A stretch of DNA of 64,000 nucleotides, taken from IMG/VR virus record IMGVR_UViG_2718218172_000010; one strand, 5' to 3'. The stretch is from a virus (taxonomy: Duplodnaviria > Heunggongvirae > Uroviricota > Caudoviricetes). Below the pieces are notes generated by a model. It was given only the letters and a program-made list of their open reading frames with translations, was not told the origin of the DNA and made no database searches. The translations under genes were made by a program, and so were the position numbers. The stretch's first letter is position 1; every line of letters begins with the position of its first letter. Positions 35,045 through 56,289 of this stretch are shown here, one piece after another.

Positions 35045-35380
35045 AGTAACCTCTTTTGGCTTTTTTCGAATTGCCACTAACGTAGTGGCGCCGGGAGGTT
35101 CGAAACGGCCCAAAAGATACCGCGGACTTATTCCCCTTTCGGGTGTTGTATTCGTCGCCCTCCCGACATTGATCGGGGTTGTGATCGCACATATTGCCAT
35201 CACAAAAAAAGGCATAAAAAAACCAACACATTGTAGGGTGCTGGGTAATCAGCTTTTGGGGGAGGTTTCGACGCCTCATGCGTCCAATCATACTCAACTG
35301 GGCGCGGTTGTAAAGTATGAACTTGAACAGACATTAAGAATGGGTAAAATTTGTCCTCCTGTTTTATAAGGAGATTAAGG

Positions 35381-36127
35381 ATGTCTAAGTTAAAATTATT
35401 TGTAGTGTTTACCTTTTTATTACAAATAGGAACTGCGAATGCAGTATCTTTTGATTGCTCGAAAGCTAAATCATATTCTGAAAAGTTAATTTGCAACAAC
35501 AGTGAATTATCTGAACTTGATGATAAATTAAATTCTTTATATCAAAAAGTAAAGTTAGAGAGCACTGATAAGAAAGCTTTTAGAAAAATTGTTTCAGACT
35601 TGTGGAATGAAAGAGAGAAGTGCAAAACAGAATCATGTGTTCGACAATGGTATTCTAATGCATTCAGGGAATATTCATCTTTAAATGAAATTAATGAGAA
35701 CATAATCAATGAATCAGAGAATTACGCTGAATGGTATATTGATGGTGCGCTGATAATATTACCTCCATTGGAAGGTGTTAGTAAAAATAGATTCCTGATG
35801 TATGGCGATGATGGAACAATAGCTATTTTTATTGCTTCAAAATCTAAAGGTAATGGATTTTGCGATAATTCAGTGCAAATTGATGGCCCATTAGAATATC
35901 CACCAATTTTGATTAATGGTGAATATTATAAAACTTATAAATCATGCTTGTATGGAAATGGTTTTATAGTGCCAAAAACTGAAATTGGTAAAGCAGTTCT
36001 GAAAGAGTTGGTTATGAAAATGAAGCCTATAAAAATTTCTTTTGGAGACGGCGATGAATTTAACTATCCTCCATCAAATGTAAAAAGAATGCTTGAGAGG
36101 GTGGAAAAAATGAAACAGGCAAAATAA
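35381..36127 (+). CDS. secreted DUF1311 (LprI-like N-domain) protein, moron
   Basis: AAGGAG SD; signal peptide MSKLKLFVVFTFLLQIGTANA; Cys pattern FDCSKAKSYSEKLICNN...CKTESCVRQWY; low GC. Confidence 0.5.
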   Translation: MSKLKLFVVFTFLLQIGTANAVSFDCSKAKSYSEKLICNNSELSELDDKLNSLYQKVKLESTDKKAFRKIVSDLWNEREKCKTESCVRQWYSNAFREYSSLNEINENIINESENYAEWYIDGALIILPPLEGVSKNRFLMYGDDGTIAIFIASKSKGNGFCDNSVQIDGPLEYPPILINGEYYKTYKSCLYGNGFIVPKTEIGKAVLKELVMKMKPIKISFGDGDEFNYPPSNVKRMLERVEKMKQAK

Positions 36128-39089: not shown

Positions 39090-39189
39090 NNNNNNNNNNN
39101 NNNNNNNNNNNNNNNNNNNNNNNNNNNNNNNNNNNNNNNNNNNNNNNNNNNNNNNNNNNNNNNNNNNNNNNNNNNNNNNNNNNNNNNNN
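39090..39189. other. assembly gap (100 N)
   Basis: Exactly 100 consecutive N. Confidence 0.95.
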
Positions 39190-39476
39190 ATTATCAGGCG
39201 CAACTGAAGCGGCATAATCTGCGTGGAAGTATGAGCGCAAAAGGTTGCTGCTACGATAATGCCTGCGTGGAAAGCTTCTTTCATTCGCTGAAAGTGGAAT
39301 GTATCCATGGAGAACACTTTATCAGCCGGGAAATAATGCGGGCAACGGTGTTTAATTATATCGAATGTGATTACAATCGGTGGCGGCGGCACAGTTGGTG
39401 TGGCGGCCTCAGTCCGGAACAATTTGAAAACAAGAACCTCGCTTAGGCCTGTGTCCATATTACGTGGGTAGGATCA
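39190..39476 (+). mobile_element. IS3-family transposase 3' end and right inverted repeat (fragment)
   Basis: Translation ...[21 protein letters not shown]...[22 protein letters not shown] to stop at 39446; terminal GTGGGTAGGATCA ending at 39476. Confidence 0.65.
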
Positions 39477-39596
39477 CATAACCTGAAATGGCACTAATGG
39501 CCAGAGCTTACTAATACATAATCCCTACAGGATGTAGCCACCAGTTTTGTTCATCCGGTATTCTGATTTGGTAACATGCTCCAGAAAGGAAGAAAT

Positions 39597-40829
39597 ATGT
39601 ACTGCAATGAATTAAAAGAATTTGCGCAAGAGCAGGAACAAAAACTTATCAGTGCGCTTGCTGATACCAGAGAGCACCCGTCCCCCGATGGTGAAACAAG
39701 AAGCCGGGATAATTATCAACGGGATTACGCGCGTATTCTGTATTCATCATCATTTCGCAGGCTGCAGGGAAAGATGCAACTTTTTGAAATTGATCCTGAA
39801 AAATTCAACAGAAACAGATTAACGCACAGTCTTGAGGTTGCTCAGATCGCCCGAAGTATCGCGTCAGACCTCAAACTGATTAACCCGGTGGTGGTTGAAC
39901 TGGCAGCGCTGGCGCATGACATCGGAAATCCTCCTTTCGGTCATTCCGGTGAAAAACTGCTTAATGAACTGTCTGAAGAAATCGGCGGCTATGAAGGTAA
40001 TGCACAGGCGCTACGTATCCTGAGAAAACTGGAGAAGAAATTTTCATACTGCAACGGATTAAATCTGACTCACCGTAGTTTACTTTCGGTTGTTAAGTAT
40101 CCCATCCCCCGCGCTGCAGCTACTGCCGGCAAGTTCATTTATGATGATGATTACTATTTTTACATTAACCTGCTTGCTGAAAATCAGCTCGATCTGAATC
40201 CCGGAGAGAAAACGATTGATGCGCAGATAATGGATCTCGCGGATGAGATTGCCTACGCCGCGCATGACCTGGAAGATGCCCTTAGCAGGAACATGGTCAC
40301 GATTGAAGATATTGAATATGAGTTTCAGATTTCTGACGAATTCCGGGGAGCGAGGGAACAGTTCAGGGAAATCGTTACTCAGTCGAGAAACACCGCTTTT
40401 CAGGCTAACTTACTGAAAACCTCAGAAGAATTTGCCATCATATTCCGCAAGGAGTTAACTTCAAATATTGTCAATCGCCTCGTTGCAGATATTTCTGTAG
40501 TAACGAACCTGAATGGTTTTCAGGAACTGGGGTTCGGGAAACTGAATGCGTTATCCGAAGGACTCAAAAAACTTCTCTTTAAAGTCATCATGCGAAAACG
40601 TAATATCCTCACCTATGAGTTCAGGGGAAATAAAATAATCAGGGATTTATATGACTTTTACAATGAAGGAGAGAATTATAAATTTCTGCCTCCTGAACTT
40701 AAATTCACCTTACCCCAACCAGATTCCTGTATATTTGAAATCAGCAAAAAACGAGCAGTGGTTGACTATATTTCAGGTATGATGGATACATTTGCAGTCA
40801 AGGAATGGGAAACTCACTGTCTGAAGTAA
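39597..40829 (+). CDS. HD-domain dGTP triphosphohydrolase-like protein (Dgt family)
   Basis: RLTHSLEVAQIARS, LAALAHDIGNPPFGHSGE, DLADEIAYAAHDLEDA; ATG with AGGAAG SD. Confidence 0.7.
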   Translation: MYCNELKEFAQEQEQKLISALADTREHPSPDGETRSRDNYQRDYARILYSSSFRRLQGKMQLFEIDPEKFNRNRLTHSLEVAQIARSIASDLKLINPVVVELAALAHDIGNPPFGHSGEKLLNELSEEIGGYEGNAQALRILRKLEKKFSYCNGLNLTHRSLLSVVKYPIPRAAATAGKFIYDDDYYFYINLLAENQLDLNPGEKTIDAQIMDLADEIAYAAHDLEDALSRNMVTIEDIEYEFQISDEFRGAREQFREIVTQSRNTAFQANLLKTSEEFAIIFRKELTSNIVNRLVADISVVTNLNGFQELGFGKLNALSEGLKKLLFKVIMRKRNILTYEFRGNKIIRDLYDFYNEGENYKFLPPELKFTLPQPDSCIFEISKKRAVVDYISGMMDTFAVKEWETHCLK

Positions 40830-40928
40830 CACTGCCGATTACCAGAGGCGCATATTTTCCCGTTATGGTTATTGCGCCTTTATTCCGTTTCGGTGACAGG
40901 TTATTTTAAATATTCTGGAAATGCGTTG

Positions 40929-41498
40929 ATGGGCAAGAACAATTACCCTGAAAATAAATACAGGAAATGGTTTTCCACAGCAATAACATATCTTATTACA
41001 GGTGGTTTGTGCTGGTATATGTTGTGGGCATCCGCTATATCTCATTATACTGTTTTACAAAATACGGTACCTGAATGGACAACATATTTTTGCACCGGTA
41101 TAATCACCGGATCTCTTTCTTTTATTTATGCATTTTATATCCGCACCTTTAACAGAACATTAAAGTCTTTATTAAATGCATTCACGGGGGGATTTTGTCT
41201 TGGATTTATACTGAGTCTGAACTGTTACGATGTCTGTGTTTATCTTTTTCCGGATAAGGTTATTAGCTATGAATCTGAATATGATGTTGTTTTTCCGGGA
41301 CCATCAAGAGGAAAGTATGGACATTGTGAAGCGGGACTCTGGTTGAAAGATCAAAACACTTCCAGATGGATACAACTTTGTACAAATAAAGAGTTCCTGC
41401 GCAGTCACCATAAGCAGGGGATGACAGGTGTATGGGTAACAGCTCGTGTTAATAAAATTGGGTCGTATATCGTGAAATATGAATTTATCTATATGTAG
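40929..41498 (+). CDS. multi-pass membrane protein, unknown function
   Basis: Three or more hydrophobic helices; low GC; 43 nt after dGTPase-like gene. Confidence 0.4.
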   Translation: MGKNNYPENKYRKWFSTAITYLITGGLCWYMLWASAISHYTVLQNTVPEWTTYFCTGIITGSLSFIYAFYIRTFNRTLKSLLNAFTGGFCLGFILSLNCYDVCVYLFPDKVISYESEYDVVFPGPSRGKYGHCEAGLWLKDQNTSRWIQLCTNKEFLRSHHKQGMTGVWVTARVNKIGSYIVKYEFIYM

Positions 41499-41914
41499 GT
41501 AAAAGCTGACATGTTTACCATGGATGAGTTGCTATATTTTTGCGCATACAGGAGTAATCGATTACTGGCTATACTAAAAATACAGAGAAAAGCTATCCCG
41601 GGATAAAGATTACCAACTCACAGAGACAAGCCTTGCCTTATAAACAGATAAATATCATCAACACAGATTCAGAAGCTGAAGCAGTAAGCCATGGTTAACT
41701 GCCTGCTGCCAGTACAGATAAAACAATCAGTCTCGCTGACTGGCTCTTATCACTATCGTTATTTCATAACTCTACAGTATAACTCATTTATCTTTATTGC
41801 CATATATTAGCATGAAGTCAGGCATTTTCATTCCCTGTCGATAATATATCAACTCCGGAGAAGTGCTTGCTATATATTCCTTGATATTAATACAAATTCA
41901 AATATATATTGCTG

Positions 41915-42349
41915 TTATTCATAATCAGGACCAGATGATACTTCCTGAGATATAAGAAAATCATCAAGAGAACCTCCGGCTTTTATAGCCTCTGCTATGG
42001 CCTTAGGCCGACGTCCTTGCCCATTCCAGTACATTCTTTTACCGTTATCGTCATACTCGTATTTATGCCCTCCTGACACACTTTTTCTGCCTGCCTGTGA
42101 TTTTTTGCCAAATTCACGACAAAAATCTTCCAGAGATATACCATGTTCATCCATGAGTGATTTGATAGCTTTCATATTTTCCTTTCGCTCATCACGTTGC
42201 TGAATAGCTATGTCAAAGTTTTCCTTAACCTTATTTAAATCTTCATCAGACATTTCTGTGACCAGTTTTTTAACAAAGTCAATACTCAGAAGTAATGCCC
42301 GGTAAGTAATGAACTCTTCATTTTCAACAGAAATTTTCTTCTTACTCAT
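41915..42349 (-). CDS. H-NS family nucleoid protein paralog
   Basis: C-terminal GKRMYWNGQGRRPKAIAEAIKAGGSLDDFLISQ, matching H-NS DNA-binding motif. Confidence 0.75.
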   Translation of the reverse strand: MSKKKISVENEEFITYRALLLSIDFVKKLVTEMSDEDLNKVKENFDIAIQQRDERKENMKAIKSLMDEHGISLEDFCREFGKKSQAGRKSVSGGHKYEYDDNGKRMYWNGQGRRPKAIAEAIKAGGSLDDFLISQEVSSGPDYE

Positions 42350-56189: not shown

Positions 56190-56289
56190 NNNNNNNNNNN
56201 NNNNNNNNNNNNNNNNNNNNNNNNNNNNNNNNNNNNNNNNNNNNNNNNNNNNNNNNNNNNNNNNNNNNNNNNNNNNNNNNNNNNNNNNN
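56190..56289. other. assembly gap (100 N)
   Basis: Exactly 100 consecutive N. Confidence 0.95.

Follow-up and report, generated by a model that had tools for sequence, protein, structure and literature searches.

A Vdg-type dGTPase gene of an Escherichia coli genomic island and its probably independent membrane-protein neighbour

Single-gene dGTP triphosphohydrolases that deplete dGTP on infection have been described as Sp-dGTPase and Ec G177 dGTPase (Tal et al. 2022; 10.1101/2021.04.26.441389), and genes of this type are often found beside type I restriction-modification (R-M) operons (10.1101/2021.04.26.441389). Vdg, the standalone dGTPase of Vibrio cholerae O1 (Shi et al., Nat Commun 2026, PMC13519002; PDB codes 9VWA/9VWC/9VWG), is octameric, in contrast with SpdGTPase, which is a hexamer. 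Vdg alone protects E. coli against T2, T4, T5, T6, T7 and phiX174, an effect that depends on H114 and on the octamer interface, and residue R31 of Vdg contacts the phosphate and excludes dADP and dATP (PMC13519002). Clover is a true two-gene system with a defence dGTPase at its core: it comprises the dGTPase CloA, also octameric, and CloB, a Pol-beta-type nucleotidyltransferase (NTase) whose product is an inhibitory nucleotide (Yamaguchi et al. 2025, PMC12265719). Clover therefore constitutes a precedent for seeking a partner gene of a defence dGTPase. Here we describe a locus in which a Vdg-type dGTPase gene is followed by a gene for a membrane protein.

The window, the whole 64,000-nucleotide stretch of DNA that was analysed, carries a gene for a 410-aa protein with the His/HD/Asp motifs beside the end of an IS3 element, as the original prediction had described. 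The features of this region are the following:

39090 to 39189, no strand: run of 100 N, a join of unlinked contigs and non-biological sequence.
39192 to 39476, plus strand: 3' end of an IS3-family element, which encodes the transposase C-terminus and closes with the right terminal repeat, ending ...GGATCA at 39476.
39597 to 40829, plus strand: Vdg-type standalone dGTP triphosphohydrolase of 410 aa and probable anti-phage effector, assigned from PADLOC, TIGR01353, the match to Vdg and the H/HD/D motif.
40830 to 40928, plus strand: spacer of 99 nt with an imperfect hairpin and then a T-rich stretch.
40929 to 41498, plus strand: membrane protein of 189 aa (WP_000517677.1), described from family alignment, hydropathy and an AF2 model.
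41915 to 42349, minus strand: gene for an H-NS-family protein (Pfam Histone_HNS, E 2.2e-12; Histone_HNS_N, E 6.8e-8).

The closed genome cq9 (NZ_CP031546.1) is 100% identical to the window on both sides of the N-run, and in that genome ~1.9 Mb separates the dGTPase gene from the prophage tail genes that the window places to the left of the N-run. The two flanks are unlinked in cq9, and the prophage is thus not the true neighbour of the dGTPase. Carriage of the dGTPase by this prophage, as the window would have it, was rejected on the same distance in closed genomes. The IS3-family sequence encodes the rve_2 part of the transposase C-terminus at 39192-39446 (Pfam rve_2, E 1e-21), and the transposase is annotated as frameshifted in closed genomes. 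The dGTPase gene is intact and starts 120 nt past the right end of the IS3 element; the stretch from 39477 to 39596 holds no called promoter-like site, and the insertion may have changed the promoter of the dGTPase gene. In some E. coli genomes the match to the window starts only at 39476, a cdiBAI remnant replacing the insertion sequence. In E. coli A24 this remnant adjoins the block formed by the dGTPase and membrane-protein genes, with the cdiB remnant upstream of the dGTPase gene. The H-NS-family gene is found downstream of the pair in cq9, 14EC020 and A24 and is absent at the membrane-gene loci of other species; it belongs to the same island block as the pair and marks the island backbone.

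The dGTPase is identical to RefSeq WP_000271619.1, of which a full-text literature search found no mention. It displays an HD domain (Pfam HD, E 1.8e-14) followed by a C-terminal HD_assoc domain (E 6.3e-15), and the metal motif H77 ... H107-D108 ... D213/D216 lies inside the HD domain, with H116/E119 as catalytic dyad. The protein scores 316.4 bits against TIGR01353 (dGTP/dNTP triphosphohydrolase; curated cut-off of 152.35) and gives a full-length match to the PADLOC dGTPase model PDLC02374, with an E-value of 1.5e-109 and 365 bits, its residues 21-413 aligning to 19-369 of the 395 model positions. Its scores lie below the cut-offs of both the NCBIfam anti-phage dGTPase model NF041026 (284 bits against 400) and the housekeeping Dgt model NF003429 (156 bits against 405). 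Judged by its sequence, the protein is a member of the already described family of single-gene anti-phage, dGTP-destroying enzymes. The view put forward originally, of a Dgt-type enzyme of the mobile, defence-associated kind, is borne out by the PADLOC match, by the bit scores of 387 to anti-phage Vdg versus 81 to housekeeping E. coli Dgt (PDB code 4X9E) and by the position of the gene on an integrative island, with a type I R-M system alongside.

The closest relative of solved structure is Vdg (PDB code 9VWA; E 9.7e-115, 55.6% identity over 387 residues), which is similar in length (402 versus 410 aa), has the same HD and HD_assoc architecture and likewise stands as a single gene, lacking any fused or partner domain. 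The two differ in that Vdg comes from another genus, while the E. coli gene is island cargo adjoining IS3. Vdg H114/E117 correspond to H116/E119 in the E. coli island enzyme, the residues of the dGTP pocket are identical at all nine positions, and those of the dAMP allosteric site are identical at seven of eight, R31 being replaced by E33. At the octamer interface E236, R322 and K323 are kept while H235 is replaced by Y and K324 by R, and Vdg Y400 and K402 fall outside the alignment of the two proteins. Residues C127, C366 and N364, which provide octamer-octamer contacts in Vdg, are not kept in the E. coli protein. The replacement of R31 by E33, together with the interface substitutions, suggests that the allostery and the oligomeric state of the E. 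coli enzyme could differ from those of Vdg. Vdg is also the nearest relative that has been experimentally tested, at only 55.6% identity.

Sp-dGTPase and Ec G177 dGTPase belong to the same enzyme class and share its presumed defence logic, a single gene depleting dGTP on infection, and the island gene resembles Sp-dGTPase-type genes in lying near a type I R-M system. However, it scores 167 bits against the SpdGTPase structure (PDB code 9P8W) versus 387 against Vdg and does not belong to the Sp-dGTPase clade, from which the original claim of a defence role was drawn. Identities to the Sp and Ec G177 enzymes, computed on their N-terminal parts (~133 codons of the reference sequences), are ~50-54% over ~100 residues of a conserved N-terminal core. 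CloA of Clover is distant from the island dGTPase (~92 bits), and the neighbour of the latter, unlike CloB, is a membrane protein; it lacks an NTase signature and is not co-conserved with the enzyme. No Pol-beta-type NTase gene was found beside the island dGTPase, where the downstream gene lacks a significant Pfam match and the upstream position is taken by IS3 or, in A24, by the cdiB remnant. Housekeeping E. coli Dgt (505 aa, the target of T7 Gp1.2) shares the HD-domain dGTP triphosphohydrolase chemistry, but it is encoded by a core gene. Human SAMHD1 likewise belongs to the HD-domain dNTP triphosphohydrolases. It restricts viruses by depleting dNTPs and is under allosteric control by nucleotides; by description it is set apart by remote homology, a broad dNTP specificity, a tetrameric assembly and a SAM domain.

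Of 5426 complete E. coli genomes, 326 (6%) contain the 5' part of the dGTPase gene. In cq9 the island bearing it contains an integrase, HsdR/M/S (type I R-M), a MazG-like gene, CbtA/CbeA and antirestriction genes, and in closed genomes thymidylate synthase and the MazG-like gene, both of nucleotide metabolism, lie near the dGTPase. Relatives with 66-81% identity were found at 11 loci in six genera. Those of Proteus, Edwardsiella and Morganella stand alone at accessory-gene positions within prophages, those of Klebsiella and Pantoea adjoin a NACHT gene and a SIR2_2 gene, respectively, and that of Cronobacter lies amid nucleoside-metabolism genes (PfkB/Nuc_deoxyrib_tr, QueC, AMP nucleosidase).

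The start of the membrane-protein gene at ATG 40929 is favoured by RefSeq and by the alignment of homologues, which gives a protein of 189 aa and a gap of 99 nt. The distance of 43 nt initially reported fits the alternative start of the longest open reading frame, TTG 40872, located 42 nt past the dGTPase stop. Its GC content of 0.368 is lower than that of the dGTPase gene (0.429) and of the window (0.476), in agreement with the original description of a low-GC, multi-pass protein; the multi-pass character holds for the N-terminal half, which has three predicted hydrophobic transmembrane (TM) helices, while the remainder is predicted to form an 80-residue β domain with two invariant Cys (AF2 model, pLDDT 85.8). 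From the charge distribution and the two invariant cysteines, the C-terminal β domain is probably periplasmic. Twenty-five homologues with 43-76% identity have 21 invariant columns in common, and the open reading frame is thus a real gene. A profile search of 1.84 billion representative proteins placed the family in 53 clusters at 50% identity, all of about equal length and without fusions, and the family is narrow, being confined to Enterobacterales and Pseudomonas. No significant match was found in Pfam, NCBIfam, PADLOC or PHROGs, no Pfam domain was found in distant members of the family, and a Foldseek comparison of the fold with BFVD returned nothing at E <= 0.001. Sub-threshold Pfam hits to Sulf_transp and CLC were observed on the hydrophobic part. 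The tblastn searches did not find the gene in phage genomes and found it in five plasmid records, comprising two Pantoea megaplasmids, an E. coli fragment and two Proteus records.

Clustering of neighbouring open reading frames at 34 loci revealed no universal partner of the membrane-protein gene. LysE-family genes occur near it in 10 and LysR-type regulators in 9 of these loci, at varying distance and strand, and the genes upstream of it elsewhere are unrelated and encode a helicase, an aldehyde dehydrogenase, a molybdopterin oxidoreductase, RlaP, DeoR, a sulfatase, AmpC or CdiA. It is probably an independent gene, belonging to a family with no assigned function and no consistent genomic partner. 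In the spacer that separates it from the dGTPase gene, no terminator was called by a terminator scan, and the fold of the segment 40826-40930, which includes the spacer, is no better than that of shuffled sequences (MFE -23.1 kcal/mol, z -0.66). The spacer hairpin is located at ~40844-40880. The DNA 5' of the ATG aligns weakly with sequence lying upstream of homologous genes in other genera.

Besides E. coli, 34 species were found to carry the membrane-protein gene, and tblastn detected a dGTPase within 8 kb of it in none of them, 32 of the 34 loci being informative upstream and 2 beginning at a contig end. A search with the dGTPase-family HMM of all open reading frames within 6 kb of the membrane-protein gene gave a match at the E. 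coli locus only. Conversely, the membrane-protein gene is absent from all 11 loci of the 66-81% identical dGTPases in the six genera. Among complete E. coli genomes, in which counts are not phylogenetically independent, the dGTPase 5' part was found in 326, the membrane-gene 3' part in 206 and at least 80% of the whole pair in 188, the last with at least 98.4% identity. Thus, ~42% of the E. coli dGTPase carriers are without an intact membrane-protein gene, although the ~140 genomes with a truncated gene may represent few clones. Where a papA/resistance-gene junction cuts the membrane protein at residue 96, the dGTPase is still the intact WP_000271619.1. The two genes are therefore not co-conserved in either direction, the finding by which the original prediction had itself proposed that a two-gene defence unit be dismissed, and its fallback, in which the membrane-protein gene is unrelated cargo, is the reading that the data favour.

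The gene at 39597-40829 is likely to be a Vdg-type single-gene anti-phage dGTPase carried on an island, and the membrane-protein gene an independent neighbour, considering the family membership, the conserved catalytic and ligand residues, the accessory, island location and the lack of co-conservation. By analogy with characterised relatives, we infer enzymatic activity, octamer formation, regulation by dAMP and phage protection for the island dGTPase. The HD-domain triphosphohydrolase would cleave dGTP into deoxyguanosine and triphosphate, and an infecting phage would thereby exhaust one of its DNA precursors. As in Vdg, the enzyme would probably form an octamer of dimers, and an allosteric site for dAMP would lie where the two subunits of a dimer meet. 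The gene is cargo of an E. coli tyrosine-integrase genomic island that also bears the type I R-M system, and a copy of IS3 has inserted 120 nt upstream of it. The membrane-protein gene would have become its neighbour once, in an ancestor of the E. coli island block, and would have no conserved part in dGTPase defence.

Membrane effectors are frequent in defence systems, and the two genes could form one operon whose membrane protein senses infection or damages the membrane together with the dGTPase. They lie on the same strand, separated by 99 nt (42 nt when counted to the longest open reading frame), with no terminator called, and the pair is kept almost unchanged in the 188 genomes. However, this conservation is accounted for by the inheritance of one island block from a recent common ancestor, the pair does not co-occur beyond E. 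coli in either direction, and a large share of the E. coli carriers lack an intact second gene. Moreover, the membrane protein matches no PADLOC model, its charge and invariant cysteines suggest that the conserved domain is periplasmic and thus away from the cytoplasmic enzyme, and Vdg acts alone (PMC13519002), which together make such an operon extremely improbable. The membrane protein could instead be protective alone, as an orphan immunity protein against a membrane-acting contact-dependent-inhibition (CDI) toxin or bacteriocin or as a surface-exclusion factor. This would agree with its small size, three TM helices and conserved, probably periplasmic domain, with its sporadic occurrence at variable genome positions, with the CdiA, hemagglutinin-repeat or PT-VENN genes found within a few kb at four loci (L014, L020, L032, L036) and with the cdiBAI remnant that adjoins the A24 block. 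Nevertheless, most loci have ordinary chromosomal neighbours (LysE, LysR, solute-binding protein, chemoreceptor, AmpC), the gene never directly follows a toxin C-terminal domain (at L020 it is 2 kb away and at L036 there is a fragment only), no immunity family matches it in fold or sequence, and it is absent from phage genomes, so that a protective role of its own is quite improbable. It is very improbable that the family constitutes a mobile protective factor, for instance an orphan immunity or exclusion protein of the inner membrane or periplasm, that was recruited beside the dGTPase in the E. coli island so that each would add to or modulate the protection given by the other.

A different question is whether the dGTPase is immune in function or is a housekeeping enzyme of the dNTP pool or mutation rate, carried by the island as metabolic cargo. 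Homologues with less than 45% identity to Sp-dGTPase seldom adjoin defence genes and may be housekeeping enzymes (Tal et al., 10.1101/2021.04.26.441389), the island protein scores under the NF041026 cut-off, thymidylate synthase and the MazG-like gene lie nearby in closed genomes, and the Cronobacter relative has a nucleoside-metabolism setting. Against this, E. coli already possesses Dgt, from which the protein is distant by both the 4X9E and the NF003429 scores, the gene is restricted to 6% of genomes, its relatives are solitary in prophages or lie beside NACHT, SIR2 and R-M genes, and the closest characterised relative, Vdg, is anti-phage. A non-immune function is thus unlikely, and an island-borne, single-gene anti-phage dGTPase is the preferred interpretation.

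The pairing of the dGTPase with the membrane-protein gene vanished once other genera were compared, and adjacency within a single species, even at identities of 98% or higher, is no evidence of functional coupling. Little changes in the general picture. With this locus the Vdg-type branch of defence dGTPases gains a representative carried on an E. coli island. The branch has so far been characterised only in the Vibrio protein, and the E. coli island dGTPase could serve as its native-host model in E. coli.

The three features underlying the original prediction, a dGTPase, a membrane gene and an IS3 end, were all located in the sequence, and its description of the locus is therefore accurate:

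39192-39446, upstream of the dGTPase: C-terminal rve_2 part (Pfam) of an IS3-family transposase, with the element end at 39476.
39597-40829, plus strand: dGTPase, 410 aa, identical to RefSeq WP_000271619.1.
40929-41498, plus strand, the same as the dGTPase: membrane gene, 189 aa, WP_000517677.1, with the ATG start given by RefSeq and by homologue alignment.

The dGTPase, labelled in RefSeq as [quoted passage not shown], comprises the Pfam domains HD and HD_assoc and displays the metal motif H77/H107-D108/D213-D216 together with the catalytic dyad H116/E119. The ORF of the membrane gene is already open from a TTG at 40872, and its GC content, 0.368, is below that of the dGTPase (0.429) and of the window (0.476).

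The PADLOC dGTPase defence model matched the 410-residue protein over its full length (E 1.5e-109), and the general dGTP triphosphohydrolase model TIGR01353 scored 316 bits (cut-off 152). Comparison with solved structures revealed that the best matches are those of Vdg, the standalone dGTPase of Vibrio cholerae O1 (PDB codes 9VWA, 9VWC and 9VWG; E 9.7e-115, 387 bits), which is the closest known system. Other matches include SpdGTPase (PDB code 9P8W; 167 bits), the Thermus protein (PDB code 2DQB; 157 bits), CloA (PDB codes 9P8S-V; about 92 bits) and housekeeping E. coli Dgt (PDB code 4X9E; 81 bits). The dGTPase and Vdg are 55.6% identical over 387 aligned residues, and the catalytic dyad, 9 of the 9 dGTP-pocket residues and 7 of the 8 dAMP-site residues of Vdg are retained, the exception being R31, which is replaced by E. 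Most residues of the dimer-to-octamer interface of Vdg are also kept. Judged from this alignment, the protein is a Vdg-type HD triphosphohydrolase with active site and substrate pocket intact. Two other assignments were rejected. The NCBIfam anti-phage model NF041026 scored 284 bits (cut-off 400), which places the protein outside the clade of Sp-dGTPase described by Tal et al. (10.1101/2021.04.26.441389); this enzyme and Ec G177 are systems of the same type from a sister clade. The protein is not housekeeping Dgt either, as NF003429 gave 156 bits vs a cut-off of 405.

The window contains exactly 100 N at 39090-39189, and a second 100-N run at 56190-56289. On either side of the first run the sequence is 100% identical to the closed genome of E. 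coli strain cq9, in which the prophage tail genes are located at 2.386 Mb and the dGTPase at 4.291 Mb, with about 1.9 Mb between them. Thus, the window strings draft contigs together, the dGTPase contig beginning within the repeated IS3, and the prophage to the left of 39090 was rejected as a neighbour of the dGTPase. Within that prophage, amid phage tail and baseplate genes, a 258-aa ORF (35351-36127, plus strand) with very low GC (0.31 over 35500-35999) and a signal-peptide-like N-terminus appears to be an accessory gene of the prophage with no structural role; its sole match, to the A1S_1983 family, is weak and below cut-off.

The true setting of the dGTPase is a large integrative island, as in cq9. 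This comprises, in order, a tyrosine integrase; a type I restriction-modification (R-M) system of HsdS, HsdM and a DEAD/DEAH helicase that is probably HsdR; a MazG-like gene; an XRE regulator, a hypothetical gene and thymidylate synthase; IS3, the dGTPase and the membrane gene; H-NS-family, ProQ/FinO, YagK/YfjJ and YfjI genes; and antirestriction, CbtA/CbeA and related genes. In the closed genomes (cq9 locus L001, 7662-10668, outside the window), thymidylate synthase and an opposite-strand 314-aa hypothetical gene precede IS3, with the XRE regulator to their left and the MazG-like gene and type I R-M further left. A nucleotide-metabolism-type cluster thus lies beside the dGTPase. This cluster is of interest since CloA of the Clover system senses dTTP (PMC12265719). 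Directly 3' of the membrane gene and convergent with it lies a 144-aa H-NS/StpA-family paralogue (41915-42349, minus strand), which accompanies the block in all 4 of the 4 examined E. coli loci keeping that flank and is absent from the loci of other species.

The adjacent genes had been proposed to form a possible two-gene defence unit or, alternatively, to be unrelated cargo, and partnership was tested both from the membrane gene and from the dGTPase. Homologues of the membrane protein number 61 in a collection of 5.8 billion proteins; with identities of 43-96%, they belong to Enterobacterales and, in a few cases, to Pseudomonas. When a single genome was scanned for each species, 34 membrane-gene loci emerged in 34 non-E. 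coli species; 2 of these loci start at the end of a contig and give no upstream information, leaving 32. No match to the window dGTPase was detected by tblastn in any of the 34 loci, up to 8 kb either side, and a dGTPase profile HMM built from 114 homologues, applied to every ORF of at least 70 aa within 6 kb, matched the E. coli locus only. Upstream neighbours of the membrane gene vary by locus, including an SF1 helicase with DUF2726, aldehyde dehydrogenase, molybdopterin oxidoreductase, RlaP, a DeoR regulator, sulfatase, AmpC beta-lactamase and CdiA, while LysE, LysR, solute-binding, chemoreceptor and similar genes lie downstream; no common neighbour occurred in more than 10 of the 34 species' loci. 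In the reverse direction, the membrane gene was found in 0 of 11 dGTPase loci from six genera. Among complete E. coli genomes, the whole pair is present in 188, the 5' part of the dGTPase in 326 and the 3' part of the membrane gene in 206, counts that are not phylogenetically independent and are consistent with the cross-genus result. In a large group of these genomes a papA/resistance-region junction cuts the membrane gene after codon 96, with the dGTPase intact; in a smaller group the dGTPase lacks its 5' end; one genome of this kind was examined, and its membrane gene carries a frameshift. The two genes stand side by side in E. coli simply because a single island block has been passed down, at 98.4% identity or more. 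The two-gene unit is thus contradicted by the lack of co-conservation in both directions, an outcome that the original prediction itself had named as refuting, and the cargo alternative is favoured: the membrane gene is an unrelated neighbour, matching no characterised family. Clover, a real dGTPase two-gene system, differs in its defining nucleotidyltransferase partner, which is absent at the window locus.

The alignment of 25 membrane-protein sequences, with identity down to 43%, contains 21 invariant columns, and by this measure the gene is a real, constrained one. The family forms 53 clusters among 1.84 billion representatives, in a single length class. Three hydrophobic helices extend over residues of about 16-37, 52-72 and 84-107, and the N-terminus and second loop are positively charged. 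Behind the helices comes a beta-rich domain of 80 residues, which contains a PGP motif and the two invariant cysteines C133 and C151. This C-terminal domain is probably periplasmic, as judged by the positive-inside rule and by the cysteine pair. Sequence and fold searches gave no functional lead. Among Serratia, Enterobacter and Pantoea, the approximately 100 nt preceding the start codon can be aligned weakly, and the E. coli sequence (window 40830-40928) aligns in part; this would fit a gene moving with its own control region, although this weak alignment is not leaned on. In three Pantoea species, CdiA, hemagglutinin-repeat or PT-VENN genes lie a few kb from the membrane gene; in one Klebsiella locus, cdiA and a 124-aa ORF are followed by no more than a C-terminal fragment of the protein. 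The dGTPase-membrane block of E. coli A24 (L051, 1517-8718) abuts a cdiB/cdiA/cdiI remnant in place of IS3. Such proximity may reflect chance in variable regions, or it may hint at orphan immunity as the role of the protein.

The dGTPase gene is accessory, being present in 326 of the 5426 complete E. coli genomes, and stands alone on an island rich in defence genes. The island also holds the type I R-M system, the type of context that pointed Tal et al. to defence dGTPases. In other genera, the nearest relatives of the dGTPase (66-81% identity) occur as single genes within mobile or defence contexts. They adjoin a prophage integrase in Proteus, lie in lambdoid prophages of Edwardsiella (between the recET and N/cI regions) and Morganella (between replication genes and Q), occupy an island next to a NACHT protein of 2092 aa in Klebsiella variicola (L042, 7276-11227; 75% identity), and are followed 143 nt 3', on the same strand, by a SIR2_2 protein in Pantoea sp. 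Mb-10 (L045, 6374-7681; 75% identity). The Cronobacter relative, among nucleoside-metabolism genes, has the least defence-like setting.

A study of July 2026 characterised Vdg as a standalone, octamer-forming dGTPase with dAMP at an allosteric site; when expressed by itself, it protects E. coli against T2, T4, T5, T6, T7 and phiX174, and this protection requires H114 and the octamer interface (PMC13519002). By analogy with Vdg and the enzymes of Tal et al., the window dGTPase would act as an octamer of dimers, hydrolysing dGTP to deoxyguanosine and triphosphate under tuning by a nucleotide at the dimer interface, and would lower dGTP during infection far enough for phage DNA synthesis to stall. 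With E in place of R31, the enzyme could differ in the adenine nucleotide that it accepts. The IS3 copy 120 nt 5' of the gene may have changed its expression; no promoter-like site was called in these 120 nt by a simple consensus scan, which is weak evidence. Taken together, the accessory spread and the neighbourhoods fit an immune gene travelling alone, and the dGTPase is, by sequence, a new representative, from E. coli, of an already known family of single-gene defence systems.
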